A DNA stretch of 64,000 nt from Protoeuglena noctilucae (GCA_958009085.1 OY253675.1:434001-498000); one strand, 5' to 3'; positions 51-52,608 are shown, counted from the first letter of the stretch. Numbers and translations are program-made. Notes: generated by a model not told the origin, from the sequence alone.

Positions 51-3000
51 TTCCTACCTCCGTTGCCGCGCCATCCACGACCGCCTGCTCCGCACCTCCG
101 CCCTCGCCCACTGGGCCGCCCTGGCCACCTCCCAGAGACTGGCGCGGCTGAGTCAGGCCGCCGGGATCTCGTTTCACGCCAAGTCCTGCCAGCTGCGGTG
201 CTTTGCGGCCTGGAAGCATCTTCTGCTAAAGCGCAAGATGCTCGACGATCGGATGCGCGCGCCTGCGACTGTGACCATCGCAAACGCCACTATCCCCACC
301 ACCGCCACTGCCGGAGTTACACGGGGTGTGGCGCGTGGCACCACCACCACCACCACCACCGCTGTCATTGCACGCGGCAGGGCAGGGACTGTGGTTGATA
401 AGGGTGCGACGATCGCGGATCCCAGTGGGGGTCCGCTGCCCCGGCTGGGCGACGCCATTGGACGGGGGCTGGGGCGCGTGGCGGGGCGGTTCGAGGCGGC
501 GAGGGTGCAGGTGAGGGGTCACAGCTGTGGTGGTGAGCGTGCGGGGGTGCAGGTGAGGGGTCACAGCTGTGGTGGTGAGCGTGCGGGGGTGCAGGTGAGG
601 GGTTGCTGCCGTGGCGGCTGGGAGCATACTCGCATTTTACGTGGGTCGCTACATGTGTACACATCTGCCCACATCGTAGCTCCACTCATCAACCCCACCC
701 CATGTTAACATCCACCCCCCTCTACCACAACTCAGATCCATCAGTGCAAGTCCCTGCTGCGCCGCCTGGCCCCTCACCTGCGCTTCACCGCAAGCGGTGA
801 CGATGTGCAGTGGGCCGCCTCCGTCCACGCCGTCCGCACCGCCCGGGCAACCGCCGAGCGACAGCAAGCATCGACACAGTTACCACAGTTACCGCGTGAC
901 AGTGATGGTCGCAGTGGGGGTGGTAATGCAAGGGGAGTGGGGGCTACGAGAGCGGTAGAGCTGGGGCCTGTGCCGGAGGCGCAGCGGCTGGGGCTGGGGG
1001 AGGCGGGGCAGCGAAAGGCGATGATGAGGGCGATGGGAGTGGCGCAAGGAATGGGTGGGGGAGGCAGTGGGGTGGCTGGGGGGGGTAGCGATGCGGGTGC
1101 GGGTGGGGGTGCGGGTGCAGGTGTGGGTATAGGTATGGGGACAGAGGTGGAGGTCAGTTTGGGGTCTGCGTTGGGTGCGGCGGAGGGTCGCGATGCGCCG
1201 GCGACGGTCAGTGGGACGTTCGGGGGGGTGTCGACGGTGGATGGGGTGCATGCTGCGCAAGTGCATGGGTCATTGCCCGGCATCCCCGCTGGCTTGGCGA
1301 TACCTGAGATGTTCCAGGTGAGACCTGAATGCTGCACTGAGTCAGGTTAAGTGCCCGGCAGTCAGTGCGACACTGCAGCTATCGAGAGAGCACTCGCAGC
1401 ATTCATAGTTAATTAGATAGTGTTGCCAGTAAGTCTCACTGACTTGCAAACCAATCAATCCCCTTATCTGCCACCACCGCCGCAGGTGGACACGGAGCCC
1501 GGCTGGGCCCACCTGGCCCGCATCCTGCAAAGCGTGCTAGACACCATGATAGCAGCTGGCGGTGCCTCATCCGCCACCCACATCGTCCGGGGAATGCGGG
1601 ACGTGGCTACAAGCAGCCAAATTGGCGACTCGCTTGCCCTGCGTTTTCTGGCGGAGGCGGCGGTGTTAGCAGCCAGGACGGCGGGGGCGGGAAGGCCCAG
1701 GCACGCCCCCTTCCGCCCCACCCTCGACCGCATCGCAAATGCGCTGCGCGCGGAGCTTGCGGCCGCGACGCCAATCGCGGGAGCAGACGCGGTGTACACA
1801 GCTGCCACCGACACCGCACTCACCGCCACTCGCGTGGCTGCCGCCCTCGCCGCCACCGCCGCCGCCCGTCTGGCCGAGGGCGTACCCGGCCGCGATCCCC
1901 AGAACGTGCTGCGCCGTCCCCTGTCGCTTTCGGTGGAGGAGGTCGCCCGGCTGGAGTCCGGACTGACACGGGTGTCTGACGCGCTGTCTGGCGTTTCGCC
2001 CCCGCGTGACCCGGGGGCCATCCCGGGCGCCCTGCGGACCGCCGCTTCGGCGCTGCGGGGCTTTGCGCTGGAATTGGCGGAATGCGCCGACCGGGCGCGG
2101 GGCTGCGAGGTCGCGATGCGGCACGAGGTGGGGGCGTTGGGGGAGGTGGGGGCGGCAATGGCGGCGGCGGCAGATGGGGCGTTGACTGCGGTGCGGGCGC
2201 GCGCGGGGACGCTGCGATCGCTCGCGGGAGCAGGGGCGGGGGCGGATGGGGATGGGGAGCTGGTGCGGAGGCTGCGGGAGGAAGAGGGCGTGCATGCGGG
2301 GCGGGCAGAGCGGTTGCAAGCGCAAGCGAGGGAGCTGGACGAGATTGCTTCCGATGCTGTGGATCTTTCCATGGCTGCGTTCGAGGCCAAAGTGGAGGGG
2401 CAGGCGCGGGTGAGGAGTGTTGGGTGCTGGGTGCTTGGGTGTGGTAGCAATGTGGGTGTGGTGGCAGTGTGGGTCATTGTGTTATGACTCGGTTAGTGTT
2501 ACGAGTGTTACCATCGCTAGCACTCTCAACCGTGATAACAATAATAACCTTGCGCTTTTTAACAACACCCCCCCTCTCCCCCCCCCCACACACACAGGTA
2601 GCAGACATGGTGCGCAACCGCCCGCGCCCCTCCCCGCCCCTCGCCCCGCCCCCGCCGACCCTCCCAGAGGCAACGGCAGCGGTGCAGAGTGCACAAAACG
2701 AGGAAACGGAGGCTTTCCGAATGGTGGAGGAGCTAGTAGAGCGCAGGGCGGGGCTGCTGGCTGAGGCTGAGGTGGCGTTGGGAAAGGCGAGGGCGGCGGG
2801 GGCGGCGGCAGAGGTGGCGGGGCAGATGGGGGAGTGGCTGGGGGCGGTCAGCACGCGCCGGGAGGCGTTAGCGGGAGAGCTGTCCGCCCGCGCGGCATTG
2901 GCGCAGCAAGGGCTGGCAACAGCGGTGGAGGCGGCCGAAAGGGCGGGGCGGGAGGCTGGGGCGTTGGCAGCGGCTGCGGGGGTGGCGGCTGACGCAGCGG

Positions 3001-6000
3001 CTTGCGCGGCGCTTCCCTGGGGCGACTTGGATGCGTGGCGCTCTGCAGCTGCGGAGTTGCCGGAGGAGGGGCCAAGGATGGGGGCGTCGCGATTGCGCGT
3101 GTTAGAGCTGAGCGCGGCAGCTGAGGGGACTGCCAGGCGGGCCTGGGGCGACAAGCGGGGGTGGCGGCATGCGGGATCTGACGATGAGGATGAGGATGAG
3201 GGGGATAGTAATGGGGTGCGTGGGGTGGGCTGGCGTGTGGTGGCGGACTGCGATTGGACGGCGTTGATGGAAGTGGGGTTCGCGTGGGGGGACAACGCTT
3301 CGTGGGGGGAGGGGTCGAGGTTCCACCCGGAGGTGACTGACTGATTGATTGGTTTGTTGATTGGTTGACTGATTGATTGGTTGATTGGTTGAGGCTGATT
3401 GACTGATTAATCGGATCGACGTACACAATGCAATCGACCCAACCTTCTATTCAATCCCATCCCCATACCCCACCACCATCGCAGGTCAACCGCAGCCACG
3501 TCTTCGGCATCGACGCATCGGAGCTCCTCATCTACCCCCCCATCGTGCATTTCTACAATCGCTTCGGCCGATCGTGCTCTGCGGAGGAGGCGGGGTACGA
3601 GCCCTACAAGTGGTGGGAGGAGGGGATGAGGGGGGGGGATGGGGTGCTGGACTTTGGTGAGCGGTGTTGGGGGGGGGTGGTAGGGGTAGTGTGGTATGGA
3701 GATGGGGTAGTGTGAGAGGGGTGGTGGGAGGAGGGGATGAAGGGGCACTACTTCACCTCACAACTCACCCACCCCTCGTCTACTATTCCAATTCACTACC
3801 CATTTCCAAACCCCACCCCACCCATCCCTCCCACCCCTCACCCCCAGCCCTCGACCATTCACCGCCCACCATCTACCCACTCACCACCCACTCACCCACC
3901 CATCTCCCATCTCCCCACCCCCCCAGCCCCCCCCGGCACTCGCGGCGCCTCCGTGCGTGGCGGCGCCCATCTCCTCGACAGCCCCGACGACAGCGACTCT
4001 GATAACGAAGATAATAATGATAATGATGATAACGATTATTGCATCATGCCAGTCGGGTCGCGCGGTGGCATCCTGCACGACCTGTGGAGGGTGCGGCTGG
4101 ACTGCGCGCCGAGGACGGCCACGGGGCAGGCGCGGCTGTACTATCTGAGAAAGGTGAGAGGGAGAATGGGTGATAGTTTGATGAATGATAATGTCAGGGG
4201 TGATGGTGTGGTAGTAAGACAGGCGCAGCTATGGGGCAGGCGCGGCTGTACTATCTGTGGAGGGTGAGGGGGGGTGATGGGGTGATGTTTATGGTAGGGT
4301 GTAATTTTGCTTCTTGCGATTGTGAGGCAGTATCTATGGCACATACCAACCACCTTCAACCACCCTCACCCAAACCCACCCATCCCCTTCTCCCCCCTCC
4401 TCCCCCCCAGCTCGCCCGCCGGGCCCTACAAGCCATCGCCCTGTGGCGCGTGCACTGCCACCGCGCGTCGGACATCGCAGGCTCCCTCGGCCGCCGCGCG
4501 CTGATGCGTCGAGCGTTCGACAGATGGCAGGAGTGGCCGGGGGTGGCGAGCGATGCGGCTCTTGCGTTCCGGGATCGCAACCTGGCCGCCAGTGCGATGC
4601 TGGGGTGGGCCCTGTGGATGCACTACAGGCGAGTCACTGTCTATGTGTGATTGGAGATGTGCAATAACTGGCAGCGAGTGCGATGCTGGGGTGGGCGCTG
4701 TGGATGGCGAGGGTGCAGAGGAGGGTGCAGTGACTGGGATCGTGCTGTGCAAATTACTGTCACTGATACCCATACTGGTATCCGTATTGGTGTCGGTATC
4801 GTATCGGTAATGGTATTGGTATTGTTACTAATACCAATACTGATATTGATCACTCCCCCCATCCCCCCAGGGCCGCCAAGCTCTCCGCAATCCTCGAGGC
4901 CCAGTCCTTCTACCACCGTCACCTGCAATCCACCGCATTACTATCGTGGCAACTATGGCTGGAGCGGCGCAGGGAGCTGCGGGAGAGCTACGAGCGGGTC
5001 GTGGCCGCCAGACACCGAGGGCGGATGCGAGAGGCATTCGGTCACTGGCACGCGATGGCGGCACAGCGCGCGCTGCTCACGCGCGTGTTCACGCGAATGC
5101 AGGAGGCGTGGGAGGGCGTGGGGTGGCACCCGGAACACCACTACGAGTTCGATCTCATGCAAAGGGTGATGGGTGCGTGGCGGGAGAGAGCGGGCGAGGT
5201 GGTAGCGAAGCGGACCGGGGCAGCGCGGGAGGCGGCGGCGGAGGCGTACCGATCCGCGTCGCTCGCGCACCGGGCGATGAGCGCGCTGCGGGCAGCGGGC
5301 GGGGAGGCGCGGGCGCGGGGGCGGCTGAAGTCCCGGGTCTTCCGTGCGTGGTGGGCGGTGGCGGCGGTGGAGGCGCTGGAGGGCGGCGGGGCCGGGAGGA
5401 GCCAGCTGCGCGCGGCGGGGTACGCCAATGAGGGGCAGTACGATCGCATACGGTGCGTGTGGGGTGTGGGGTGGGATTGTTGGGTGGTTTATGGGGATGG
5501 AACTGTGGTGGTTGGCTGTGGGTAGTTTATCTATCAAATAGATATACGTTGTCGATCTGGTAACGCAATGTACCTCTCCCATTCCCGCAGTCGGCTGCAT
5601 GGGGCGTTTGGCGCATGGCGGCTGCTGTCGCAGGTCCGGTCCCGGCCGCTGCAGCTGGCGGCTCTGCTGTGGAAGCAAAAGGTCATGTCTGCCTTCGCAT
5701 TGGGGTGCCGAGCGTCGCGGGAGGAGGACGATTCGCGATTGCGGCCCTTTTTGGAGAAGTGGGGCGGACGGCGGCCGTTGAAGCGGGCATTCCGGGTATG
5801 GCGTGCCGTTGCCAGGAAACTCGCCAGGCTCAGGTGAGGGGATGCGGTCGTATTGCTAAGCGATGATGAGACGATGAGACGGTGAGGATGGGGCGGCGCA
5901 TTTGCAGCTTGGCTGTGGTGGTGGTGGTGGTTCCGATGCAGCAATGGCGACTCACGCAATGTGGATGACAACAATTATCGTTATCATCGCTTAGAGCATC

Positions 6001-9344: not shown

Positions 9345-12300
9345 TCACTGCATAGCACACGGCATGCGCACGGCAGCCCCCTCCCCCGCCCCCCCCTCAT
9401 CCCCGTCCTCTCGCTCCCTCGCCCGCAACAGCGCTTGCAGTATCGCGGGGTCGAGCAGAGTGCTCAGGCCCAAACGACGGTGGCTGCCCTGCTTAGCGCT
9501 CTCCTGGTTGTGGCTCACCTGGGGGGAAGTGGGGGGGAGTGAGGAGTTATGTATAAAAGACAATTATTTACATCCGCAATAACCAATAAAATTTGCAATC
9601 ATATATAAGTATTATGATATTATTATGAGTTCACCACCACCACCCCTCCTTACTCTTACTTTGTACTTATCATCATCAAATCGTTCTGTTATTTATATCA
9701 ATATAGTAACAACAACACCCACTCACCAGCGTCTCAAGCGCGTTCGCGTCCACCACCGACCCCCCCTCCCCCTCCCCCCCCTCGCCCGCCCTCGGCGCCC
9801 ATATTCTGACGACGCTCTCGATGCCAGAAGTCGCCAGAACGGGGTCCACCGGGTGCGGCTGGCAGCAGTTGGCCACATCCGCGTCCGCAAGCAGCGCCGC
9901 CACCAAGCGACCGGACTGGGGGATAAGGGGGGTTATATAGGGAAAGGTATGATTGAATTATGGATAAGGGTTACTCGCGAGCAGGGCTGCCACCAGGCGA
10001 CCGGACTGGGGGATTGGGGGAGAGAGGGGATAAGGTGTGGGTGGATGATGGTGTATGACATGTGTGGGTGTAAGGGTGCTCAGGCATGTCAAATATCAAC
10101 CCTTCACACTATACACCCTCACGCTCACTGCCACCCCCACTGCCACCGCCACTGCCACCCCCACTGCTACCCTCACTCCCCCGCTCCCCACACCCCCACT
10201 GCTACCCTCACCCAATTGTATATACCACCCCTCCAACCACCCCCTCACCTCCGCCTCATGCAGGAACACAAACACAAACACCACCCCCACCACTCTCATC
10301 CCCACTGCCACCCCCACTGCAACCTCAACCCCACCACTCCACACACCCACACCCACAATCCCCTCCCCCCCCCCTCACCTCCGCCTCATGCAAGAAGACG
10401 TGCCCGCAGTCGGAGCAGCACGCGACCAATCGGTCGTCTCTCCCCACAAAGCACGCCTCCTTGATGTCCGTGTGCACGTTGCAGTGACCCACGTAGCGGC
10501 GGGTGAGGCGGGAACCGCCCTGGCTCAAGTCGCGGAGCCAGCGCTGGGGGGGTTACGAGAGACAGTAATAGATAGATTAGTTAATAACTGATTATGACCA
10601 GCTGATGTTGCCAGCGCTGGGAAGGGGGGAGAGGATAGATAGTAATGGAATAGTTGTTGATGAATACATTAATGATGAACACTTTCCAACTCACTAGCAC
10701 CCGCGACACCCATTTCAATACAACCAACCCCCACCTCCCTATCTCAATACAGCCACCCCACTCACCCACGACAGCCTCCTATCCGGCAACACCACCCCCG
10801 TCCCCCCCACCCCCTCCCCCCCAACGCTGATTGCCTCTCTGTCCGGCCCAGGGCCCCACCGCTGCCCAGACTCGTCCACCAGGCACTCCTCCACCCTGCG
10901 AGGGCGAATGGGGGATGAGACGCGGGTTTGAATCCCGGGGGAGGCAAGGGACTGTGCAAGAAAGCGACACACGGGGAACGGCAGAGCCCCCTTGCATGCC
11001 CGTCACCACAGCCGCGCTCACTGCCAACATGCCAGGCCCTCACACCTCCCTCACCCACACCCTCACACACCCACCCCTCCTACTCCCACACCACCCCCTC
11101 CCCCCTCACCCCGCACTCCCACCCCCTCCCCGCCCCTCCTGCCCCCTTCCCCCACCGCTCCCACCCCCCTCCTCATCATCACTTGAAATCCCCAGCAGCT
11201 CCCGCAACCGCCTCCGCCCCCGCTCCCCCGCACCCTCACTGTTACTCTCACCCCCATCACCACTCTCAATGCCACCCTCATCACCACCACCACCCTCACC
11301 CTCACTGCCATCCTCACCACCCCTGCCACTGCCACCCCCACTGCCACCCCTATCACCATCCTCACTGCCCCCCTCACTGCCGCCCCCCACAAACCTCGCC
11401 ACCACCCCCACGCTCCCCACAACGCGCTCCTCGTCCCCACTCCCCTCCTCCACCCTCTCCTCCACTTGCACTTGCACATCCAAACTCACGTAACTGCCAC
11501 TGCGACGATGCATGCCCCGGCTGCCCCTCCTATCACCTGCACCCGCACCCGTACCCTCACCGCCACCCTCACCCCCACTGCCACTGCCACCCTCACCCTC
11601 CCCCCTCCTCCTCACCACCCCCTCTGCTGCACCCCCACCGCCACTCCCACGGCCACCACCACCCGCACCCCCACCACCCCCACCCCTCCTGCGCTTTCGG
11701 TTCTCCCATCCCTGACTCAGCCGCTGGTCCAATTCCGCAATCTCCCCAATCATCGATGGGAATCGAACCTTGAAGTCATCGACCGCCTGACGGGCACTGC
11801 GGGTGGGTGGTTGGGAAGAGGGGAAGGGGTGGCAGTGGGGGTGGCAGTGGGGGTGGTGGGTGTGATGGTAGCAGTAAGGGTGGCAGTGAGGTCGTGGGTG
11901 GGCAAGGGTATGCTGATACACACTACTCACCCTCTCCCACACCTGATGGCCAGCCCCTAGGCATTACCCAGTCATCATCCTCAGTCATGCACTCCCTCGC
12001 CTGACCACCATCCCCAATGCAACCCGCATGCCTGCAACTGCTTTACCACCATTATCACCACCACTCATCATCCCCCTCACCTCGCCACCATCCCCAGCCC
12101 CCTCAGCGCCTGTGCCCGTTTAATATAAGGGCGGAAATACCCAGGCGCAGCGTCGATCGCATCCTCGGCATCCATCAGCGCAGAGAAGGCGTCGCCCGCG
12201 TAGTTGCGGTGGAGGTAGGCCGCGGCTCTGTGTGTGGGGGTGGGGGGGGTTGGTGGTGTGTGGTGGTCGTGGTGGTCGTGGTGGTGGGGATAAAGGGGGT

Positions 12301-37972: not shown

Positions 37973-38182
37973 GGTGCCTCCGTTTCGAACCGTTTCCACG
38001 ATATACAGAGACCGATGGGTACAAACGACTCGATTTCATCCGCCAGCGGGGTCGGGGGGCCGCAAGGAGGCCTGCTGGCCCACCCTGGCGCGCTTTTCGC
38101 AGGATCGCTGTTTCGACGCAAATGAGGAGATGCCTGACCCTAGCTGTCGAGATGAATGACCATGGCGAATCTTGGTGCGCTA

Positions 38183-39487: not shown

Positions 39488-39654
39488 GACCGCGATTGAT
39501 CTGTCAGGTCAGGTCAGAGGCAGTGATAAAGCGGCAGGCAGGAAGGGTGGGGCAAAGAGGGGCGCCAGCAGAGCCCGTTTTCCCTCCCCATCCACAGCCT
39601 GCCCCCATGAAGTGGCAGTTCGGTGCTGCATCGGGCCCTCCCTGAGGTGGTAAG

Positions 39655-40632: not shown

Positions 40633-41270
40633 GCACAGCTGGGGTCGGGTGGTGTTTATAGTACTACGCACGGTCGTGGCAACAGGGTCCCATCAAATCG
40701 AGGCCGGTTGGCATCGCATGGCGACATCGGGTGAGTGCTGCGGGTTAAGCTCGGTGTGGTGCGTGGCGTTGAGGGCAAGTTGGCGGGGTGTATGCAATAT
40801 GTGGGAGGGAAACCGTGGCACGGTCGAGTGGCGGGGGCATGAGACGTTGCCCTGTCTTAAGGTTAAGTGCCACACATCAGCGGGCGCCTGTCATGCCCGG
40901 GCTAGCCTCCACCAGCGCGCTTCGGGTCGAGCCTCACCCCGGAGCGCTAGGGAGCAGCCACATGTGCCACATGCGCACGCAACTCGCTTGGATGGACACA
41001 TGCGCATGCGTCGATGAACACGTGCGTTGTAGCATGTGCAATGCATTGCTCATCTGACGAGCTTCGTTGCTGCTTCAAGCGGCGCATGTCTTTGCATGTG
41101 CCGCAGGCAAGGGCCCAAGCGCACCATCGGCGTGGGCACGTCCGTGCATGCAAGGTCTACAAGAGAGACTGTCAATATGGCGGCAGCCACAGCACGTCGT
41201 GAGTGCCACTAGATAGATAGCTGGTACTAGCGAGGCTCCATGCTATCTACAAGGCCGTGACACTGCCCTC

Positions 41271-44200
41271 TCACAAGTACGTCAGGCTGCGGTTCCCCAT
41301 CTTGAGATTGGTCTTCTTCTTGGCGCCCCTCTTCGACGCAGCCTCCAACGCGACACCCATGTCACGGGTCGGGTTGAAGCCCTGGCCCCTGCGCCCACCG
41401 CCACCGCCACCGCCACCGCCACCCCCACCCCCACCCCCACGCCCACGCCCGCGATTCGAGCCCCCCTCTCGCCCCGCCCCGCGCCCACGCCCGCCACGCC
41501 CCCGCCCGCCGCCTCTGGCTGCCTCCGCCCCCAGGGCCCTGGGCCTCCCTGCAACGAAACCGAGCGCACGATTCGTACTAAGCAAAAGTCGCTATGCAAG
41601 GGGTTTGGTGTTGGACGTTTGTCCAACTGATACACACAGAGCAGTCGCTAAACAATGCAGCTAAGGCAACTCTGCTTTGCAGAATTGCGTTACTGCCAAC
41701 AGCGCCCGCCGCCCACTCCCCCATGCCACTCACCTTGCTGCGACGCGCCCCCCTCGTCGTCGCCCTTCCCTCTCGGGAACGGCCGGCCCTCGTTGTCATC
41801 AATCACCGTTCCGATCTGTATCCCGAAGTCGAACGGCGTCACCTCCGCCGCACGGGCGCGCTTCCGGGCCGCACGCTCGCTCGCACCCCGTTGCTCTGCG
41901 GGTGGTACGAGGCGGGTGGGGTGGGGTGATGGACCACTACCTGTGGACGTACCAAGGGAGTTACCCTGACAGCCACCATGCACATCCCACATGCACCCCT
42001 TCTGCAGCATTCACCCCACGCGCACGCACCCCCTGCCGCTCTCAACCCACCCATATCCACCCATTCACCACATAGCATCATGCACCCCACATCCACCCAT
42101 CCACCCCACCCGCACGCACGCACCCCCTTCGGCCCTCAACGCCACCTCCACAAACTTCCTCTTGTCCTTCCCCCGCTCTGACCCCCCCGTTGAGTATCGG
42201 TGCTTCAGTGGAACGGGGAGGTAGTCCTCTCCCGCAAGCACCTCGGCCCCTGGACTGCCCGCACCCTCCGCCTGCATGGGGATGAGGCAAACACACATGA
42301 ATGAATTGTTACTATCAAATAGTGTATACCAAAAAGCAATGGTTGACCCACTTGGCGCATTGATGGGCGTCACTGCGCCACTGCAGTTGGGCTAGCGATG
42401 ACCTGGTTGCTGGCGCTGCCACCCACGCACCTCTGCCTGCCTCCGCATCCCCTCCACAAACGCCGCCACTGCCTCTCGCTGCCCCTCCGCCAGCTCCGTC
42501 GGCGCAGCAGCCACTGCTTCATCATCCCCCATCTCCTCGCCACCCCCATCCCCACCTCCCCCGTCGCCCTCGCCAGTCACGCCTCCTGACTCAGGAGTAA
42601 CTGAGTCAGCATCTGCAGCTAAGACCAGCGCAAAGGGCATGGCCATCGCCCCTTTCACCGCCGCCACCCTCGCGGCCACCCCCGCACTGCCAGGTGACAC
42701 AGACACAGGCACAGGTACTGCCCCAGAGCCACCCGCTATGGCACCCAGTACCGCCATGGCAGGCCGCGCAGTGCGGGTGGGTGGGGCACCAAACAGAGCC
42801 CCCATCGCACTGGGCTGCGCTGGACGCGTCACCACAGCCGCAGCCATGCTGGATGGTGCAGCGGCAGTGGATTGGGCCACACCAGCCGCCGCCCTACACC
42901 CGTTGTCGTCACCCCCACCGCCCCGCTCAGCATCAGCCCCACCGACTGCCTCTGTGACGCCGCGGTTAACGTCCGGCTGCGATGCGACATCCAATGACCC
43001 ACCCTTTGTATGGCTAGACACCCCCAGCCCTGTCCCAGTGACCCCAGACAGCGCCGCTGCCATCCGCGATGCAACCGGTGCAGGCCCTGTGATGGGCACC
43101 ACTACACTTGCACTCCCGGCACTGTCTGCATGTGCACCGCGACCCATCAGCCCCGCCATCGCACTCCCCGTATGTGCTGCCACCCCCACCGCCACTGCCA
43201 CCCCGCTCGCACCCCCACCCCTGACCCCTCCGCCCACAGTGCTGCTACCACTCGCACCAACACCCGCAGGTGCCGCCACGCCCGCTACCTCCCCCCCTGC
43301 GCCAACCCGCTGCCTTCCAGCCACCCCAGCCCCACCCTCCCGGTCCGCCCCCACCGCCACTCCCACCCCATCCCCTTCCTCTCCCTCCCCCTCCCCCTGC
43401 GCACCCCCCTCATCCTCATCGCCCCGCTCCTTGTCCCCCGCAGCGCCACCCTCGTCTCTGACGCCGTCTCTGGCACCCTCTCTGGCACTGACAGCTGTCG
43501 GAAGCAGCCCTGTGGTCGGGTCAGCCCCCAGGGGAGGCTCAGCCCCATTCACAGCCGCCCTCACTGCCGCTGCGATGTGCTCTGCGTGGCGCCGCGCGAC
43601 TGCGTTGCGGATCTTGGAGCCGGCAGAATCCAGGGCTTTGAGTAGCGACGGCACTGTGCAGAGGGAGGGGGGTGGGTGGTTGGGTGTAGGTCAGGTGCAT
43701 GGGGCAGTGGCGGGGGTGGAGGATGCATGGCACGCTACTTCATACAGCAGGATGCACAGTTAAAGAACTGTGGGTTCCGCACAGCCACTGCCACAGCACA
43801 CGCATGCGTCCACACCCCCCTACCACTACGCCCATCCTCACCGTCTGTCGGCACCGCCTTCGCCAGAGCCAGCAGCACCGCGCGGGGCATGATATAACCC
43901 AGTGAGTCATCCCCCTGCCGCCCAGTGGCGTCTCTCCAGGCAAAGAGAGCGGAGAAGGCCGCGATTTGGCGTCGGTCCAATGACCTCGCTGCAGACTCCC
44001 GACGCAGAGCGGCGACCCACGAGGTGGGCGTGAAGAGGGGCTTCTGCGGAAAGGGGGCGTGCGAGCGAATGAGGGGACTTGCAAGGGAGGGCAGGGGCAC
44101 CCTGCGTGCAACTGGTGGCGGTGCATGGGCTGGGAGCTTTGCAACAGAGACGCGCTTGCGTGTGACATGAGCCAGTGCTTCCACAACCAATCATCTCCAT

Positions 44201-46505
44201 GCACGTTCTAGGTAGGTCCAATCTAGCCTCACCTCGTACTTGAGGCTGCAGACACGACGCGACCGCTCGATCACGCACGCCAGGGCCGGGCTCGCTGCAC
44301 CCCGGTCGGCGACGGCCTGGACCGCAGGGGAGAGGGGCACCCTGCGGAGACGAGCAGAAGGGTGGGGCGGTTGCGTCAAGCATGCTACGTACCTGGGTCG
44401 GTGCAGCTTGGGTGAAGTGTGCTGCCAGGCTAGATAGCAGAGCCCAGAGAATCCAGAGCACTACAAAGCAAGTTGCTACGATTGCTAATCGCAAGAGTAT
44501 GACGAATGCTAATGTTCATCATGGCAATGCAGTGCTGCCACTCACCGCAGCTCCTCTGGGACCTCGTCCTGTCTCTCGGCCAGCTCCCTCCGCAGCGCGT
44601 CGTACACGTGGAGCAGGTAGTGGGTGTCCTCGCGCGCGTAGTGGGCCATCTCGTGCGTCAGCGGGCGGCAGCGCCAGTCGGCGAGCTGCAGAGCCTTGTT
44701 GGCGCGGACGCCGCAGTGGCGCTGCAGCAGGTGCGCCAGGCCGTGCGAGGGCAGGCCGAGGACGCGGGCGGCCTGGCCGGTGTCGAAGAGAGACACGACG
44801 TAGATTCCAAAGTCGCGCTGCAGCCACTGCACGTCCCCGTCGGCCCCGTGCAGCACCTTAACGATGCTGCCATCTGCAAACACGGGGCCCAGCGCCGCGG
44901 GGATCTGCCCGCGGAGGGCCAGCGCGTCAACCAAAAAATCTCGCTCCCACGTAGATATCTGCGGGCGCGAGAACGCGGGCGGCGGTCGAGCGAAGCAGCG
45001 CAGCGATGCAAATTGAGTTGCGGGGCCCTGCGAGCAAACACGACGAGATGCGACCGATTCTCACCTGGATGAGGCACGTGAATCCCTGGAACGAGCGATA
45101 CGAGTGCGCCTCCAGGTCCACCGCGATCTCCCGCTGCTGCGCGAGGTGCTGCGCCATCTCCGCCAGCGCGCTGTCGTTGTCCACCGTGACGAGGGGCGTT
45201 GATTCCAACGGAGCGTACGCCCGGGGAACCTGCGGGAGGGGGCGGCAATACCATTCGTTTGGTATGCACAAGACAATCGACCATCCTGTACGTGTAATTA
45301 AGGCAGGGCTGCGGGGCTGCCGGCGGCCCATTCGCGCCCAATCCTGGTAAAGGATGAGCCATCTAGTGCAGACTACTGAAACGAAACAGCTACAAATACG
45401 CAGCGTTTCTGTGCATCACGCCTCTCGCCTCGGGGATGGCGAGGAGGGACGCGGGCACGGCAGAGTCGTGGATGGCAGCGGCATATGGGTGAGGGTACCT
45501 CCCCTCGGCATCCGGTGCCAGGACGCGGCCACCGGGGGGCACCAGCGCCTCGTGCGCCGCGGACACGTCACCGCGGAGATACCAGGGGCGGGGCACTGCA
45601 TGGACAACAAAGCGTATCATAGCACGTTCTGGCCCCACCTCAGCTGCCATCGTTCCGCAGCAGTCACAGCGGGCGACAGAGCGATGCATGGGCTGACGCG
45701 GGTATGGCTAGTCAACGTGCAGCGGCGTTCGCCGGAACCCAGTCATAGATAGCACACGCACGCACCAAAGGGTTCCCGCGCGTTGTCGACCGGGTCTGGG
45801 AACGACTCCTGCGGCCGCGGTCCCGCTCCCAGCGCATCGAACTGCGATCCGCGAGGGGACTGCGGGCGCGGACCGACCGCCAGCAGCGACGCTGGCAGGG
45901 GGCTGCGCTTGGCAGTCGGCGAGTCCGCTGCTGCCGCTGCCGTGGGGCTCTCCGCGTCCCGCTTGCGCTTCGCGTTCTCAGCCCTGAGCTGCGCGAGCTC
46001 CTTCGCGTGCTCGTCGAGGCTGACGGAGGCCCTGTCGATGAGCCCGTCCATCAGAGGCAAGAAAACGTCGCTGTAGCTCGCGTCGCAGTCGCAGTCCTCC
46101 GCGTCCGCCTCCCCCGCTGCGCCGAGGAAATCACAAAAGTATAAAGTACTTCGTCATCGCTAGCTGACACGATGCAAGCGGCTCTCCAAGGTTGCCCGCG
46201 CGCGCAAGGGCCTGGCTCGACGTAGCTGCCCCTTCGTGCAGGACGCAGGCGCGATGAACGCGCTCACCGGCCTGGACGTTCTGCGATGTTATCCTCCCGG
46301 TGCTCAAGGACGGAGCGGCGCGCTCCGCCACGTTCAGGGCAGACGCGCGTAGGCGCTGCACAGCGTCCCGGAACGACGTGGCATTGTAGAGCAAATGGAA
46401 CCGCGAGCCGCCGGGGAGAGCCGCTTCCCGCGCCTTTGACACGGCCGCATTGGCGTCCAGCAGAGCCGCAGTCACGGCGTCCACCGGGGCCGCCTCGGCG
46501 GGCAT
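41271..46505 (-). CDS. RRP6: exosome 3'-5' exonuclease RRP6 (EXOSC10)
   Basis: DEDDy motifs IAVDLEAHSYRSFQGFTCLIQIST, KVLHGADGDVQWLQRDFG, LFDTGQAA and QLADWRCRPL...YAREDTHYLL. HRDC segment LFAWRDATGRQGDDSLGYIMP. RGG tract and C-terminal GNRSLTYL-stop. Ten exons. Confidence 0.95.
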
Positions 46506-46911
46506 CCCGGGCGGCCGCTGTGCCGCAGCTCGGGCGTCGCCCGCGTGCTGCGGCTCCGGATGCCTCGTGTGGGTGCGGCGATTGCTAGGGCAGCTTTGCG
46601 CGCGAATGACATCGACGTGTCCTGCCGGCGCGTCTCGGGGCCGTCCCCCTCTGGCGTATCGTCCCTGACAGCCCCAGCGCTCCAAGTCACGCCAGCCAAG
46701 GCCTTCCCTTGTATAGATTGCTGCCAGTGATGACTACTCGGCGACTTGGTTTCAGCTCTGACGTCGCCCTTAGCTCACCAGGCTGCTCCCCACCGACGCA
46801 CTTGTGTTGAGGCGCCCCCCGCGCCCGCCCATCGCGCCGTTCCCCTCTCCCCCCGGGGCCACAGCTTGATTGCGTTTCCCGCGAAACGCTGGCGCGAGCG
46901 TCGCTTCCACC

Positions 46912-48223
46912 ATGCAGTCCACGCTACGGGCGTGGGGCGTGGGCCCGTCGGTTAGCAGCCACGGCGCCTCCCCGGGGCCATCGCGGCCGCCCTCCTCCCT
47001 CCGGACGCCGTTGCAAATGCGTCGAATGGCGTACGGTGCGCAGCGCGGATGGACGCGCCGGCGAGCTCCGCGCGGGCGCAGACCTACGACGGTCACCTCC
47101 ATCGAAGGATTGCCGCGCCGCACCGCGTCTGCCCATCCGTCGCCCGCAGATCCCGAAGTGCTTCCACCAGAGCAACCCAAATCCAGTCGCAGGGCGCCCC
47201 CACCGCCCAGGCGCGTGAGCCACCAGCCCTACCCTTCCACAGTTACCAGTCTCCCCACTCCTCCCCATCGCCCCGCGTTGCCTAACCCTGTCGCTCTCGC
47301 TCTCGACTGCAGGCCTCCAGCGCCGCCCCCGCCCCCTCCGCGCCTGGTGGACCGCCGCGCTGCCCTGGCCATCGCCGCGGGGGTCTTGGGCCTCTCTGGC
47401 CTACTCATGCTGGAGAACAGCGACTTCGACGCGCCTGGCCAGGCCCCGGCGAACCGCGTGTTCGGCATCGACGCGAACGGCACCAGGATCGAGAGGAACC
47501 GGCAGGGGACGTGAGTGGTGGGACATGGGTGGGGTGGGGAGGGGCGGGGCGTGCGTGTAGGCGTGCTTGACCTGGACTGGGTGACAGGCGCAGAGAGTCT
47601 ATGCAAGCGGAGCATGCATAAAACAGCGCTGGACTCTCGAGCAAGCTCATCTGTCTCTTTTGCTAAGAAACGTATTTGTGTGCGAGAGACCACTTGGATC
47701 GCACGTGCAGGGTCCGTGTCAAGTACTCTGCCAACGGCATCGAGTCCCTCGTTCACGAGGTGTACTACGACCCGTACCACGAGGGCGTCCTCATCCTCAA
47801 GCCCCAGGTGAGTTTTGTGGCTGCAGGTAGTCGGGCTGTCGAGGTCACACCTAAGCTTACGCTGCGGCTTGTGGTGCAAGCCCAGCGACCGCCCGCGCTT
47901 GTGCCTGACGTGCAGATGGACTTAGACGAGGGCGTGTTCATGTACATCGACACGGGAATCGTGGACATCGACCTCAACTCTCCGGACGACCTGCGCAAGG
48001 TGTTTGCCGGTAAGAGCCCAGCCGTCTGTGCGCCATCCTTCAGCAAATGTGGGCCTACGCTCGAGAAAGCATTGCGTAATACACTAACGTTGATGCGGGC
48101 GCAGGGGACCTGTGGCTGAGGAGGGCGCGGCCGATGCGTGCGTACGTGGACAGCATCAACGTGGACCCCAACCTCATTGGCACCGACAACGAGCCTCCGG
48201 AATGGCGAACGGGAGGCTGGTGA
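46912..48223 (+). CDS. hypothetical plastid (possibly thylakoid) protein
   Basis: Ser/Arg/Pro-rich transit-peptide-like N-terminus, then DRRAALAIAAGVLGL (twin-arginine-like plus hydrophobic stretch). The exons join in phase to ...PEWRTGGW-TGA at 48223. Confidence 0.55.
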
Positions 48224-48580
48224 GCGGTATATGAGCGAATAGGCGGTCCCCGCGTCGAGAGCGCGGCTTTCCTGCGCCGACGCCGTCGGTCTCGCAGCGC
48301 CAGCGTCGACCGTTGCGCTGCGGTCGTGAAACAGCAAGCGCGTGACGCCGATGATTAGTTCAATGCGGTTAGGCGATCGAGGTCATGTCGAGCTGCCCCT
48401 GGGAGTGAAGAGTCAGCAACGACGCGCTGAGGCGGTGCTGCGCCCGTCCTGCGCGTTATCCTCGCGCAGCTGGCCCACTGTCGTCGCCGACGCATCGAGC
48501 TTACAGAGTTGTGTCGCGCGAGTGCGAGAGCGCACTGCATCGCGCGCCGGTCGCGGCCAGCTGTCCGTGCGTCCGTTGCG

Positions 48581-51500
48581 ATGGAGGCGATCGGCCAGAC
48601 GTACGTCAACCCCGATCTTGAGGGCGAGGATGAGATTGAGGAGGAGGAGGAGGCGGCCAAGCTCGCCACCGTCTTCCTGGCGAGCGGCGGGGCGAGCGGC
48701 GGGGCACAGGGGACGCCGTTGGTAGGTTGCACCTGCGAACTGGCCCGGATTCTCCCGCACCCGCAGGTGGACATGGCACCGAGCATGCTCCAGCCACGCG
48801 TGGAGAACTTCTCGTGGGCCGACATGGCGCTCCTGAACATCAGCCACCACATCACGCACGACGCCCTCCAGGCCCCCGAGAACATGCACGCCGTCGTCTT
48901 CTTCGGCGCCCAGGCGAGTTGTCGAGTTTATGAGTAACAATCGCGCATATCCGGGATTCCCGGAAGCACCCGGATGCCTCCGCCGGGACGGGCGAAGTAG
49001 TAAAGCATTTGCGCGAGTGTGCGTCCTCACGGCCCTCCGCCGCGCAGGTCCAGGAGCCCAAAGATGCGGACGAGGGCATTCACGTCATGTTGCCGCTGTC
49101 CCGGCCGAGCGTGGCGGGTCTCCGCAAAGTGGATCCCACCAACTTCGACTCCGACGACCATTTGCAAACCGCGATTGGCTCCGCGCCCACGCCGCCCCAC
49201 GGGTCGCGGATCCACTTCCTATCCGCGGCCGTCACCAAGGCCAGGCGAGCGCAATGCGGGTTTTTGTTTGGAGCACACACGCTGCTCCCTGCGCTTCGTG
49301 CTTTGCACCATGATAGCTACAGCACGTCTCGCTCTCCCCTCGCAGGCAGATGCTGGAGAAGCTAATTCGTTCCAAGGGCAAGACCGGCCCGCGCGTGGAC
49401 ATGAGCGTGTACGTCTACACGGACGACGACAACGTGATGGGCAGCGGGAGTGGTGCATTGGCGTATGCCAACAAAGCCAAGGGGGTTACCAAAACGCTCG
49501 CAGAGATGGCCGCGCAGGGCGTGCAGGTGAGTGGTGCGGTGTGGTGGTGTGTCTGTGGCATGGTGTGGTGGAGTGACGGTGCTGCTGGTCATACGGTCGC
49601 ATGGCATGTACTCCAATATACTACTAATAATTTAATACTATATGTAGATACTTGCGACACCATGTGTTCCCTGTTTACCCAGGTGGACGTGGCTCTCTTT
49701 TACGACGGCCCCTCCCTGCCCTCCACCGATGCATGGGACGACCTGCTGCCCGACGTTTCTGGCGTTTCTGGCAGCGCGGGGGGGTTAGGGCAAACGTCGC
49801 AGGCGACGGAGGGGTTAGGGACGCAGGCGACGCAGGCGATGGGAGTGCAGGGGGCGGGACATGGGGTGGACAGAGGGGCGGGGGCGATGGGGATAAAGGT
49901 GGCAGTGGATGGGCAGATGGATGGTCCATCCATGGACATGCCGACGGTCACGCCTTGGTCGAAGGAGCAGGTGCAGGCGCATATACAGGTGACTGCAGGG
50001 AGGGGTGGGGTTTGGGAGTGGTGGGGCGGCAGGGTGGCAGCGCAGAGATGAGGGCTGAACAAGCTTATTGACACCCCCACCGCTACTGCATGGCTTTGCA
50101 CAAATGCCACCCATATCTCTACCTCCACCACCGCAGGGCTTTGAGTGTGGTAACATCCGCGTGGCCCGCCGCAAGCGCGCCTACCGCACCCTTCCCCTCT
50201 GCATTGGGCCTGATGGGCCGCCCTTCATGGTGCGAGCCTACTACACGGTCAAGAAGACGCCGCTGCCGTCACCGGGTGAGTGATTGGTGAAGTGAACATG
50301 GTGATGGTAGTGGTGGTGATGTTGTGGTGCGTGCGTACTACAGGGTCCTGTCAAGAAGACCGCACTGCCGTCACCGGGTGAGTGGCTGGTCGATGATGGG
50401 GAGGAGTGGTGATAACGATAGCGATAATGATTATAAGTAATAGCATTTGATAATAATATGACTCCCTTCTCCCCTCACACTCAGTGTGGATCGACCCTGA
50501 GAACCGTGAGACCAGGCCGCTGACGAAGTTCGTGGTCAAGAGCACCACGCAAGTGATGGACAGGGAACAAGTGACGGGGAGGCAGATACGGTACGGCAGG
50601 GGAGAGACGGTCACGCTGCAGGTGAGGGGTGGGGAAGGGGGGCATGGAAAGCGATGGGGTGGCATACGTAAACAGCTAAAGCGGCTAGATTGTCAGTAAC
50701 AACCCACCCACCCCTACCCCTGATCTTCCCTCATCCACTCACCTCATCCTCACCCCTCACCCCCATCCCCACCCCCCTTACCCAAACGCAGGCATCTGAC
50801 ATGGCGCGTGCCAGAAACCCCGCCAAGGACGCGGGCGTCTCTGGCATCCGCGTGGTGGGGTTTATCCCCAGAGATGACCTGACAGCGTTGGATGAGATGG
50901 GGGCGGGGATGTTCCTGTACCCAGACACCAGCCTGGCCTCAGGTGAGGGGGGGTGGCTGTATATATATTGGTGATATAATGGTTATATTGGATTTGGTTA
51001 TCTATTGGAACCAATATAAAAACTAATTGGATATATATTGACTTGAGAAGTGGCTTGATGCCTAACGGCCACCCTCACCCCTGTTAACACCCTCACAGCC
51101 ACCCTCACTACCCCCGGTATCTATGACCCCCGCCTCTCACCCCGACCCGTTAACCCCCTCCTTCCTGCAGTGCGCAAGAAGCACGTCAGGCAGTTTCTGA
51201 CGCTCCACCAGGCGATGCTTGCGAGGGGGGTGGTGGCCGTGGCACTCATGGCCAGCCCAGCGGGGGGGTGAGTTGTTGTTATGTGTTTTGATGAGTTGTT
51301 GCATGTTGTGTGTTGTCGTTGTGTCGCTGTGCGTTACTGTATGTTGTTGTGTGGATGGTGAGGGGTGAGTGTGTAATTACCAACCACTACCACCCCCACT
51401 GCCACCCACCTTCACACCCCCCCCCCCAGTCTCTCCCCCATTGCCCTCATCCCCACTCGCGAGTCTTGGCTGGGCGATCCCGGCATGGGACTGCAGTTAG

Positions 51501-52608
51501 TGGGGGATGGCTTCTGGGAAATGACCACCCCCACGGCCAATCAACTGAGGGCGCTGAGGGAGATGCTGCTCAAAGCGGGGTACGTGCCGGATACGCACGA
51601 GGTGAGAGACTGTTGTTTTCTAATGAGTTATGTATAAGTATAATTATATTGGAAAGTATACTGTTGTGTGAGATGGTATGGGGCAGGCAGACACGAGGCC
51701 CTTAAATATCACCATATATTCAATCATTCAAACACAATCATTCTTATACTTTCTATTTGTAATCTTCGCAGCCATCCCCTTACTCGGTTCGTGCTGCGGA
51801 GGGACTGGTGGATCGATTGCGTCTGGGCAGAGAAGAGGACTGGCACACGGTGCAGCACGTGTTCAACCCGGTATTGCAGAGGCACTTCCAGGTAAGTCAG
51901 AAAGCGAGTAGAGTTATTTAATAGCTACAAGGTTGATTGCAAGGTTGCTTACTGGTTGTGTTGATACGCAGCTGTGGTTGTCGTCACAGTAATAGTTATA
52001 GTGACGGTCATATTACTATAATGAGTAATAATAATATCACTGGTATGATCATCCATACTTTAACCACTCCACCCTCCCAACCCCCCCAGGTGGTGCGCCA
52101 CGCGGCGCAGGGCACTCTGGCAGACTACGTGCCAGACAACCGCCAGGATCACACTCTGCCGGATCCGAGAATGGACGTGGCATGCGAGGACGTCATCGGT
52201 CAGTTCGCCAGGGCTTGTCAGTTGGGGGTGTCGGGTGGCAGGGGTGGTGGGGAGGGGGGCAGGGGGCGGGGGAGTGGGGGGGCGGGGGTGAAGAGGAAAG
52301 CGGAGGGGGAGGGGGAGGAGGTGGGGGAGGGGGAGGTGATGAGGTGAGGGGTGGGGTGGGGAGTGGTCATGGTGTCACTATGTAGCGGATGCAAGGAATT
52401 TGATGCTTTCTCACCCCACCCCACCCACTTCTTTCAACGCTTACACCTCCCCACCCCTACCCCCACCCCCCCCAGGCTCCACGCCGAGGGCCGTCTGTCC
52501 ACCCTGACCGTCCCATCTCTCAAGTCCTTCCTAGCGAGCAAGGGGCTGCACGTGACGGGGAAGAAGGCCGATTTGATCGAGAGGATCGGGAACTATCTGG
52601 CGAAATAA
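48581..52608 (+). CDS. KU70: Ku70-like DNA end-binding protein (divergent)
   Basis: vWA-like N-terminus (HAVVFFG, VYVYTDDD), RKRAYRTLPLCIG, GIRVVGFIP...FLYPD, FLTLHQAMLARGVVAVA, FNPVLQRHF, DHTLPD and a C-terminal SAP domain LTVPSLKSFLASKGLHVTGKKADLIERI. Stop TAA at 52608. Confidence 0.85.

Follow-up and report, generated by a model that had tools for sequence, protein, structure and literature searches.

A minority of introns in a 64-kb window of Protoeuglena noctilucae carry a G/T-rich 5' arm and a C/A-rich 3' arm, possibly as two separate splice-site-anchored tracts

According to the available part of the report by Lin et al. (2016, PMC4691745), teleost fish possess (AC)m-(GT)n introns, in which AC repeats lie downstream of the donor and GT repeats upstream of the acceptor, and which combine strong co-occurrence of the two tracts with highly stable predicted structures and experimental proof. 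In the same partial text, a GGG...CCC arrangement was found in human introns at four times chance. A stem-loop in human LCAT intron 4 was tested and found to be unnecessary, as stated in the accessible portion of Murray et al. (2008, PMC2481429).

Non-conventional introns of Euglenozoa are characterized by non-canonical borders and an end-joining structure. Introner-like elements form a further class and also occur in fungi. In Micromonas, introner elements constitute sequence families with conserved cores, according to the part of the source at hand (PMC3879977), and the internally symmetrical (stw)introns of Hypoxylaceae were described in the accessible text as copies with similar sequences, bounded by genuine terminal inverted repeats 45-55 nt long (PMC8469720). 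The Rogers model, as presented in the available part of Hellsten et al. (2011, PMC3265369), has an intron arise when an exon segment containing AGGT is duplicated in tandem.

The window analysed here is a stretch of 64,000 nt from Protoeuglena noctilucae (GCA_958009085.1 OY253675.1:434001-498000) with a GC content of 0.64 (64%), and all statistics are confined to these 64 kb. Its introns, those of a GC-rich marine eukaryote, are of the ordinary spliceosomal type with GT/GC-AG borders, by which they differ from the non-conventional Euglenozoan ones. The intron set (about 103-104) consists chiefly of gene-finder predictions, made with penalties and four self-training rounds that led to 107 introns; without penalties, the program called 215 and 224 introns per strand, which is heavy over-calling. 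Merged calls, e.g., 3657-4480 and 51602-52089, were split up manually, and the set is skewed toward pattern introns because these calls were replaced by hand. RNA-confirmed introns are the 15 joints listed out of 35 in metatranscriptome contigs; 12 of them have GT-AG and three GC-AG borders, and eight of the 15 were recovered exactly by the gene finder. Arms were taken as the first and last 60 nt of an intron, and keto skew is given as K5 for the 5' arm and K3 for the 3' arm.

Compared with the teleost introns, those of the window are alike in having complementary simple-sequence tracts at opposite ends, with pairing possible between all combinations of tracts, and the fish tracts were likewise proposed, in the text available, to substitute for the U-rich tract and U2AF2 (PMC4691745). 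However, the first-pass annotation had drawn this analogy with (GT)n at the start and (AC)n at the end, and the orientation in fish, as far as the source goes, is the opposite (PMC4691745). The fish tracts are also pure dinucleotide repeats, whereas those of the window are G-run/C-run minisatellites in reversed orientation, whose co-occurrence is weak and whose mean z of minimum free energy (MFE) is just -0.9. Human GGG...CCC introns, which carry G-rich and C-rich intronic enhancers, are the closer precedent. As described in the accessible parts of the sources, they too are short and GC-rich, with G-runs just past the donor, C-runs ahead of the acceptor, a weak U tract and modest extra predicted stability, and in both cases pairing is debated against separate action of the tracts. 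The window introns differ in that they belong to a marine eukaryote of green-algal affinity, that their tracts are longer (50-110 nt), minisatellite-like and, in the clearest cases, of G/T versus C/A flavour, and that the 5' tracts hold copies of the exon-intron junction. The introns concerned are as follows, "example" marking those pointed out in the first-pass annotation.

511-735, plus strand: two-armed intron; 5' arm made of a 42-nt unit, exon end followed by GTGAGG, in three tandem copies (499-540, 541-582 and 583-624, the first two 98% identical); C/A-rich tail; borders from sequence alone
2410-2597, plus strand: two-armed intron, example; K5 0.67, K3 -0.53
3333-3484, plus strand: two-armed intron; (TGAT/TTGG)n 5' arm and C/A tail
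3657-3926, plus strand: two-armed intron, example; K5 0.70, K3 -0.70
4154-4410, plus strand: two-armed intron, example; sequence across exon end and 5' splice site (4118-4162) copied internally at 4228-4272 with 87% identity
4629-4870, plus strand: GC-AG intron; internal copy of exon end plus GCGAG; AT-rich, low-complexity core with a 20-nt hairpin; short C tail; 3' end picked by eye
12228-12437, minus strand: predicted two-armed intron; K5 0.80, K3 -0.88
17350-17644, minus strand: intron; two internal copies of exon end plus GGTGAGGGATGA; C-rich tail
28305-28593, minus strand: two-armed intron, example; two internal copies of exon end plus 5' splice site; missing in the closest relative (L046)
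35656-35836, minus strand: RNA-confirmed intron, example, in the gene for phosphoglycerate mutase; C/A 3' arm only; K5 0.07, K3 -0.70
35957-36153, minus strand: RNA-confirmed GC-AG intron; G/A-rich 5' arm and C/T-rich (CCTCA)n 3' arm
36324-36642, minus strand: RNA-confirmed two-armed intron, example; 2-3 internal copies of exon end, 5' splice site and G/T tract, unit about 100 nt
37387-37482, minus strand: contrast, ordinary RNA-confirmed GC-rich intron without arms; position at residue 43 common to L046
37552-37912, minus strand: contrast, RNA-confirmed intron that is long (361 nt) but has no arms; position at residue 20 common to L046
41896-42123, minus strand: intron, example; G/T 5' arm, one junction copy, weak 3' arm (K3 -0.27)
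43654-43841, minus strand: predicted two-armed intron
50276-50484, plus strand: intron; 48 exonic nt plus GGTGAGTG copied internally (50350-50390); AT-rich core
50622-50791, plus strand: intron, example; 3' arm strongly C/A, 5' arm less marked (K5 0.23)
50943-51170, plus strand: intron; short G-rich start, AT-rich core, C/A tail
51268-51429, plus strand: two-armed intron, example; T/G-rich 5' arm (T 0.50); poor arm pairing predicted, duplex -15.8
52344-52475, plus strand: two-armed intron, example; 13-nt perfect complement GGGTGGGGTGGGG...CCCCACCCCACCC
54915-55038, minus strand: predicted short GC-AG two-armed intron

The ten stretches given as examples are all introns with GT..AG ends, shifted by 0-24 nt from the ends first assigned to them; the refined borders are 50622-50791, 51268-51429, 52344-52475, 35656-35836, 36324-36642 and 41896-42123, and the remaining four are unchanged. 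The reading frame is open across the splice in all ten (29-468 flanking open codons), removal of 28305-28593 restores a protein colinear with that of a relative, and at least two of the ten, 35656-35836 and 36324-36642, have exact RNA joints among the metatranscriptome joints listed. A G/T-rich 5' arm together with an A/C-rich 3' arm had been claimed for these introns. K5 is at least 0.43 in eight and K3 at most -0.53 in nine, and the two-armed description holds by both thresholds for seven but fails for three, in which one arm is weak (the 5' arm in 50622-50791 and 35656-35836, the 3' arm in 41896-42123). As for the minor bases, eight of the ten 5' arms have more T than A, and all ten 3' arms have more A than T. 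The AT-rich pivot proposed between the arms is present, as the GC content of the middle (0.46-0.63) lies below that of the window, but the drop is modest. The statement that these introns have little U-rich tract is upheld, because the longest T run in the final 40 nt is just 1-3 in all ten. The mirrored pattern pointed out in minus-strand genes is uninformative, because reverse complementation leaves the composition of a G/T stretch followed by a C/A stretch unchanged, and both strands read identically.

Across the whole intron set, the observation of introns with a G/T start and a C/A end was partly confirmed, and the polarity of both tracts is strong. In sense orientation, strict G/T blocks number 14 in 5' halves versus two in 3' halves, and strict C/A blocks 14 in 3' halves versus one in 5' halves. 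At least three G-runs within the first 40 nt, as in the human type, occur in 23 of 103 introns (C-runs there, 1/103), and at least three C-runs within the last 40 nt, at the site of a U-poor pyrimidine tract (T runs of 1-3 in the ten examples), in 27 of 103 (G-runs there, 1/103). The mean skew is +0.215 for 5' arms (p 8e-13) and -0.159 for 3' arms (p 6e-7), with a mean 3' arm composition of C 0.41 and T 0.22. As well, the motif GGTG[AG]G averages 0.31 occurrences per intron close to the 5' end versus 0.08 close to the 3' end, and C[CT]CAC 0.70 times in the final 50 nt versus 0.09 near the 5' end.

Introns with both arms are, nevertheless, a minority of about one in ten (10-11 of about 104). 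The pattern had been presented as that of long introns, which is not borne out, since just nine of the 55 introns of at least 150 nt have two arms; among the RNA-confirmed introns, the figure is one of 15, and of the six with at least 180 nt only 36324-36642 has both 60-nt arms beyond +/-0.4. Among 103 introns, both arms are present in 10 (6.3 expected), the 5' arm alone in 17, the 3' arm alone in 14 and neither in 62. In the set of about 104 introns, partly hand-curated toward the pattern, the co-occurrence of the arms is weak, with odds ratios of 2.6 (p 0.065) and 2.9 (p 0.038), and 2.1 after stratification by length; a run test in the same partly hand-curated set gave eight introns with both versus 6.0 expected (p 0.29). 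Each arm keeps its flavour when it stands alone (G 0.49, T 0.29 and A 0.12 in 5'-only arms; C 0.58, A 0.19 and T 0.17 in 3'-only arms). A sense G4 motif is present in 12 of 103 introns, a C4 motif in 19 and both in three; a G-quadruplex as the main fold was rejected, as G4-enabled folding altered the MFE in two of ten folded introns, one of them a pattern intron.

In at least nine introns, the end of the upstream exon is repeated in tandem together with the 5' splice site. A probe of the 5' junction scored 19 or more in eight of 103 introns, against a null maximum of 12, and 511-735 is an extra case beyond these eight; the same test for copies of the 3' junction gave scores of 19 or more in none of the 103. 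Tandem copies of exon end and donor without 3' copies show, therefore, that 5' arms grow via junction duplication. Among the donor copies of 36324-36642, the first is the one used, according to the RNA. The Rogers model resembles this situation in placing exon-derived sequence inside introns by gene-scale tandem duplication, whereas in the model a duplicate of the upstream exon end terminates the intron, and the copies in the window take in donor and intron start and sit inside the 5' half. For this reason, they lengthen an intron that already exists and do not create one. In the literature searched, in which subscription journals were thinly covered, we found no description of 5' junction duplications in algae or of this intron architecture.

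The arms had further been described as compositionally complementary, and folding programs do pair the G/T arm with the C/A arm. In 18 pattern introns, 22.8 arm-arm pairs are predicted for the native sequence versus 10.5 after whole-intron shuffling, while shuffling within the arms gave 26.2. However, native arms are not favoured over swapped ones: the duplex energies are -42.2 versus -42.6 kcal/mol in the ten examples (p 0.43), -40.0 native versus -38.4 swapped in the 18 introns, and, in 11 two-armed introns, -43.6 native, -43.1 swapped, -44.6 after mononucleotide shuffling and -40.5 with the 3' arm reversed. The best inverted repeat had a mean z of 0.35 over region-preserving shuffles in 104 introns, and in nine of these the native score was reached by at most one of 30 shuffles (about 6.7 expected). 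Five two-armed or near-two-armed introns contain near-perfect complements of 13-16 nt (z 1.6-5.0 over region-preserving shuffles), which lie 4-28 nt past the donor and 17-50 nt ahead of the acceptor. A specific inverted repeat or terminal inverted repeat (TIR) was rejected, with native, swapped and shuffled arms being equal and a mean z of 0.35. By this lack of a specific inverted repeat beyond composition, the window introns differ from the Hypoxylaceae (stw)introns, to which they are alike in that the intron ends could form double-stranded intron RNA. Thus the fold-back interpretation stands as to complementarity and predicted pairing, but not as to specific pairing, and the pairing is a consequence of composition alone; any G-rich and C-rich pair would give the same.

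Because each arm pairs equally well with the ends of other introns, the arms look like two separate splice-signal tracts. Our main reading, which we hold at roughly even odds (probability about 0.5), is that two separate low-complexity tracts, anchored at the splice sites, work side by side, and that their complementarity is a by-product. The tracts are polar and nearly, not strictly, independent, and each is present with its own minor base when the partner is absent. The weak co-occurrence of the arms, the complementary minor bases of the clearest examples and the 13-16-nt complements in five introns speak against this reading. On the 5' side, a G-run/GGTG-type tract would extend inward from the splice site; on the 3' side, a tract rich in C (CCCCC, CACCC, CCACC, CTCAC) would occupy the usual site of the U-rich polypyrimidine tract. 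The 5' arms are growing as exon end and donor are duplicated together in tandem, with the 3' junction never duplicated. By comparison with vertebrate GC-rich introns, the G-runs might serve as intronic enhancers or extra U1-type donor sites, and the C tract as a pyrimidine tract of the C type in which CNCAC motifs resembling branch sites recur, both acting side by side in intron definition. On the same comparison, the arm complementarity would be a by-product, because GGTGAG and CTCACC chance to be reverse complements.

It is possible, though on the unlikely side, that the tracts bridge the intron generically, as the fish tracts do: a G/U tract would pair with a C/A tract in any register, draw the donor to the branch site or acceptor and offset the missing U-rich tract. 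As any arm could then partner any other, equal native and swapped energies are just what such bridging leads one to expect. The gain on cofolding is -31 to -34 kcal/mol in pattern introns versus -8.7 in 12 ordinary introns, and ensemble folding gave about 22 expected arm-arm pairs, with 86% of 5' splice-site pairing directed to the 3' arm. Yet this predicted fold buries the donor (paired probability of the 5' splice site, 0.73), and whole-intron stability is hardly above that of shuffles, with a mean MFE z of -0.90 for dinucleotide whole-intron shuffles and -0.65 for within-arm shuffles, close to the -0.42 and -0.55 of ordinary introns. The weakly positive co-occurrence (odds ratios 2.1-2.9), the examples without a U-rich tract and their complementary minor bases agree with bridging, but 31 of the 41-42 arm-bearing introns have a single arm, A is about equal to T in the average profile of the 3' region, and 51268-51429 has two arms and yet poor predicted pairing, with zero arm-arm pairs and a duplex of -15.8. 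From outside the window, the fourfold excess of the human GGG...CCC arrangement, as given in the available text (PMC4691745), speaks for a bridge, and the sole published experimental test of the G/C version, in which the stem was unnecessary according to the accessible portion (PMC2481429), speaks against it.

Alternatively, and rather unlikely in our judgement, the tracts have no splicing role and are neutral by-products of duplication or slippage that copies whatever neighbours the splice sites, i.e., G-rich exon ends plus GGTGAGGG on the 5' side and a C-rich tract on the 3' side, with selection merely purging harmful arrangements such as duplicated acceptors. The junction copies in at least nine introns, one set of which is 98% identical, their asymmetry of eight to zero between the 5' and 3' junctions, the numerous short-period repeats in both arms and the upstream exon ends that are already G-rich (G 0.38-0.44) are all consistent with such an origin, as is the fact that 62 of about 104 introns, long RNA-confirmed ones included, splice tract-free. 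However, the near absence of reverse polarity (1/103 at each end) is equally expected from selection on signals, and the G/T tracts of most two-armed introns reach past any recognisable junction copies.

A narrower proposal, in which about a tenth of the introns lack a U-rich tract, are defined by a register-free G/U-C/A bridge between donor and branch site and are lengthened via 5' junction duplication, as a mirror-oriented counterpart of the teleost introns, seems quite improbable. Remnants of mobile introner-like or TIR insertions, with the arms as decayed inverted repeats, are highly improbable, for although the architecture is symmetric under reverse complement and all four comparable pattern introns are missing from the closest relative, five of seven ordinary introns are likewise missing there, so that this absence does not single out pattern introns, swapping or shuffling the arms does not weaken their pairing, and all-against-all blastn of the 103 introns gave 20 short low-complexity matches (best 42.8 bits) with no common core. 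Accordingly, an introner family was rejected for the window, no shared non-low-complexity core being present among its 103 introns by blastn; the introns resemble introners in their green-algal setting and perhaps in positions not common to relatives, and differ in sharing low-complexity composition alone. The idea that pattern introns are young and ordinary ones old was also given up, as the contrast in presence in the relative (four of four versus five of seven missing) is not significant.

If the tracts are separate signals, the GC-rich way of marking short introns, with G-runs past the donor and C-runs ahead of the acceptor, hitherto described for mammals, would also exist in a marine eukaryote of green-algal affinity, and this arrangement would be a usable feature for gene finders in such genomes. 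The junction duplications show that introns are being lengthened now by tandem duplication, with a clear asymmetry in which donors can be copied and acceptors cannot, and with each junction copy a decoy donor stays behind in the intron. Should the arms pair in vivo, structure-assisted pairing of splice sites would have arisen a second time, independently, among spliceosomal introns.

Searches of the introns and AT-rich cores for known RNA families, such as snoRNAs, gave no Rfam match at the gathering score. For the gene at 48.6-52.6 kb, an identity as Ku70 was confirmed no further than the C-terminal SAP domain (E 2.2e-11), seven other exons being without a Pfam match. The phosphoglycerate mutase of the window organism has its nearest match among green-algal enzymes.

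The window (G+C 64.1%) carries numerous introns, and sampled words of 44000-53999 were found at 18-43% in four marine metatranscriptome runs. Metatranscriptome contigs aligned to 34000-53999 gave 35 joints, and the 15 listed all delimit canonical introns (12 GT-AG and 3 GC-AG) in three spliced genes, one of which encodes 2,3-bisphosphoglycerate-independent phosphoglycerate mutase, with green algae as its best named relatives (72-76% identity over one exon). The GC-AG share among these 15 is high, the donors being at 35957, 37213 and 47211 (GCGAG or GCGCG). In the mutase gene, an RNA-confirmed 90-nt intron at 34939-35028 (-) lies exactly 3' of CDS nt 1710, where the last sense codon ends, and the stop codon is therefore in the following exon. 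One contig of run X2 (37273-37710) is unspliced across intron 37387-37482 and reaches into 37552-37912, which could reflect intron retention, DNA carried into the RNA library, or a strain related to this one. Only the RNA-confirmed introns form a set independent of our own choices. The sample was widened with a simple Viterbi gene finder that used no composition model for introns; the finder was noisy (8/15 RNA-confirmed introns recovered exactly; some merged neighbours, divided manually) and yielded sets of 103 and 104 introns.

Ten stretches had been cited in the first-pass annotation as long introns with a G/T-rich 5' arm, an AT-rich pivot and an A/C-rich 3' arm. All ten are introns, since after shifts of 0-24 nt each has GT..AG ends and a frame open across the splice. 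Two have exact RNA joints (36324-36642 and 35656-35836, both on the minus strand), and removing 28305-28593 restores '...FVATKEGY|R...', colinear with an uninterrupted exon of a relative. With 60-nt arms, the keto skew of the 5' arm (K5) is >=0.43 in eight and that of the 3' arm (K3) <=-0.53 in nine, so that the described composition holds at both ends in seven; T outnumbers A in 8/10 5' arms, and A outnumbers T in 10/10 3' arms. The scarcity of U-rich tracts was borne out (longest T run near the acceptor, 1-3), while the AT-rich pivot shrinks to a mild enrichment (middle GC 0.46-0.63). Finding the pattern 'mirrored' on the minus strand is no independent support, because a G/T-then-C/A stretch reads alike on either strand.

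We favour, at a probability of about 0.5, two separate polarity-locked tracts that would be low-complexity outgrowths of ordinary splice signals, with local tandem duplication as their source and the complementarity of the arms as a by-product.

The fold-back does not exceed composition. The arms are, as proposed, strongly complementary in composition (cofold gain -31 to -34 kcal/mol vs -8.7 in ordinary introns). When arms were swapped among the ten examples, the native duplex was no better (-42.2 vs -42.6 kcal/mol, p 0.43), and over 18 introns assigned to this pattern (pattern introns) the values were -40.0 and -38.4 kcal/mol. For 11 introns with both arms, the duplex reached -43.6 natively, -43.1 swapped, -44.6 after mononucleotide shuffling and -40.5 with the 3' arm reversed. 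Predicted arm-arm pairs in the 18 pattern introns numbered 22.8 natively, 10.5 after whole-intron dinucleotide shuffles and 26.2 after within-arm shuffles, and the corresponding MFE z was -0.90 and -0.65 for these two shuffles, vs -0.42 and -0.55 in twelve ordinary RNA-confirmed introns. The 5' splice site is mostly paired in the predicted ensemble (0.73), the 3' arm taking 86% of that pairing, as follows from GGTGAG and CTCACC being reverse complements. An inverted-repeat scan of 104 introns against region-preserving shuffles gave a mean z of 0.35, with <=1/30 shuffles reaching the native score in nine introns (~6.7 expected); in five arm-bearing introns, segments of 13-16 nt that closely follow the donor are near-perfect complements of segments 17-50 nt upstream of the acceptor (z 1.6-5.0).

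The arms are only weakly coupled. In the 103-intron set (both arms in 10, 5' only in 17, 3' only in 14, neither in 62), co-occurrence gave OR 2.6 (p 0.065), or 2.9 (p 0.038) with one hand-found pattern intron added; stratified by length, OR was 2.1 with no significant stratum. Without a partner, 5'-only arms retain their flavour (G 0.49, T 0.29, A 0.12), as do 3'-only arms (C 0.58, A 0.19, T 0.17). Under the run criterion of Lin et al. (G-runs and C-runs), 8 introns had both vs 6.0 expected (p 0.29). All these values for coupling are upper estimates, because curation favours pattern introns. In the parts of that paper available (Lin et al. 2016, PMC4691745), teleost introns bear AC repeats 3' of the donor, with GT repeats leading up to the acceptor, the opposite orientation to the G/T-first, C/A-last order here, and human structured introns with >=3 GGG in the first 40 nt and >=3 CCC in the last 40 nt occur at four times chance, with slight extra stability. 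Human LCAT intron 4, in the available part of Murray et al. (PMC2481429), splices intact after its C motifs are changed to G motifs, which argues against a required stem. Register-free bridging between the arms is a less likely reading.

The observation is real but was over-generalised as a rule for long introns. Among six RNA-confirmed introns >=180 nt (60-nt arms), four have a G/T 5' arm (K5 0.47-0.60) and two a C/A 3' arm (K3 -0.63 and -0.70), both passing +/-0.4 in one (36324-36642); 37552-37912 (361 nt) has neither arm, and 40731-41106 (376 nt) has the 5' arm without a C/A 3' arm. Short RNA-confirmed introns (80-114 nt) are plain and GC-rich. Each tract is strictly polar, and two-armed introns are a minority class (9/55 of >=150 nt in the 103-intron set). 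Mean skew in that set is +0.215 at the 5' end (p 8e-13) and -0.159 at the 3' end (p 6e-7), strict sense-oriented G/T blocks number 14 in 5' vs 2 in 3' halves, C/A blocks 14 in 3' vs 1 in 5' halves, and the reverse arrangement occurs in 0/114 introns. In introns >=150 nt, the average profile has A ~ T in the 3' region and T > A at the last 28-14 nt. Short-period repeats are abundant in both arms. Pure neutrality of the tracts is a less likely reading, about on a par with bridging.

In at least 9 of ~104 introns the upstream exon end (18-48 nt), together with the donor and the initial bases of the intron, is repeated in tandem as one or two degenerate copies.

Introns carrying copies of the 5' junction
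4154-4410, 4629-4870, 17350-17644, 28305-28593: junction-copy introns, probe score 19-30.5 (null maximum 12)
29116-29332, 36324-36642, 41896-42123, 50276-50484: junction-copy introns, probe score 19-30.5 (null maximum 12)
4118-4272, 17464-17662, 28407-28628, 36324-36642, 50248-50390 and others: copies of exon end and 5' splice site
511-735 (+): junction-copy intron, 42-nt unit three times at 499-624, first two copies 98% identical

The tandem copies indicate that the 5' part of such introns grows by duplication across the exon-intron junction. Upstream exon ends are G-rich (G 0.38-0.44), and duplication adds them, with GGTGAGGG-type sequence, to the 5' part. G-triplets are reportedly a subject of work by McCullough and Berget. 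Comparable 3' copies were found in 0/103 introns at score >=19, a duplicated acceptor presumably not being tolerated; copies at the 5' junction alone indicate that introns are still being lengthened and gain decoy donors as they grow. The donor used in RNA-confirmed 36324-36642 is the first. The unit at 499-624 (+) consists of exon end GCAG and GTGAGGGG... and comprises 14 codons, stop-free in one plausible exon frame (frame not established), so that use of either later donor might lengthen the protein in frame by 14 or 28 residues.

A mobile-element origin is very improbable: blastn found no shared core among the introns (20 short low-complexity matches, best 42.8 bits). Rfam gave no match in them. 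The introns also lack one defining feature each of introners (PMC3879977), symmetrical fungal introns (PMC8469720) and introns newly formed through AGGT duplication (PMC3265369), as described in the available portions of those papers. In the literature, of which coverage was incomplete, no account was found of the two-armed architecture or of duplicated 5' junctions in algae. The AT-rich core of intron 4629-4870 has a 20-nt inverted repeat at 4801-4844 (+) with a 4-nt loop (TATCGGTAATGGTATTGGTA...TACTAATACCAATACTGATA; z 3.5 vs shuffles).

The closest mutase (80-85% identity) is encoded by the metagenome contig L046 (GC 0.69). Introns at residues 20 and 43, armless in the window, are present in L046 as well; those at 74, 264, 321 and 361, the last three arm-bearing, are absent from it, as is 28305-28593. 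The neighbouring gene (38.2-39.5 kb) has four introns, short and ordinary, and L046 lacks all of them; the contig is therefore simply intron-poor (9/11 compared introns absent), and the contrast between pattern (4/4) and ordinary introns (5/7) says little. Among the 46 loci listed, 40 of which span residues 264, 321 and 361 within one alignment, none has a break there. L046 1126-2034, 2719-4582 and 6362-6922 match window 39400-38183, 37567-35050 and 28901-28067; the three genes are adjacent in L046, and ~6 kb of other genes separates two of them in the window.

Long C-rich 12-nt periodic arrays of CCACTGCCACCC type lie at 10100-11700, 25530-25620, 33076-33260 and 41377-41463, with one repeat family numbering 32 copies. 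Most of the C/A blocks that lie outside introns belong to these arrays, which would encode Gly/Ser-rich repeats (GGTGGCAGTGGG) on the minus strand. An (AGTAAT)n AT-rich hexamer/dodecamer microsatellite, 98% perfect, sits at 13151-13283 amid 64% GC sequence, and runs resembling it, of GATAAT type, are present in intron cores and within a coding exon (3990-4040). Finally, in the gene at 48.6-52.6 kb, which is rich in introns, the last exon, 52477-52605 (+), encodes a SAP domain (PF02037, E 2.2e-11), and seven other exons, each searched alone, had no Pfam match.
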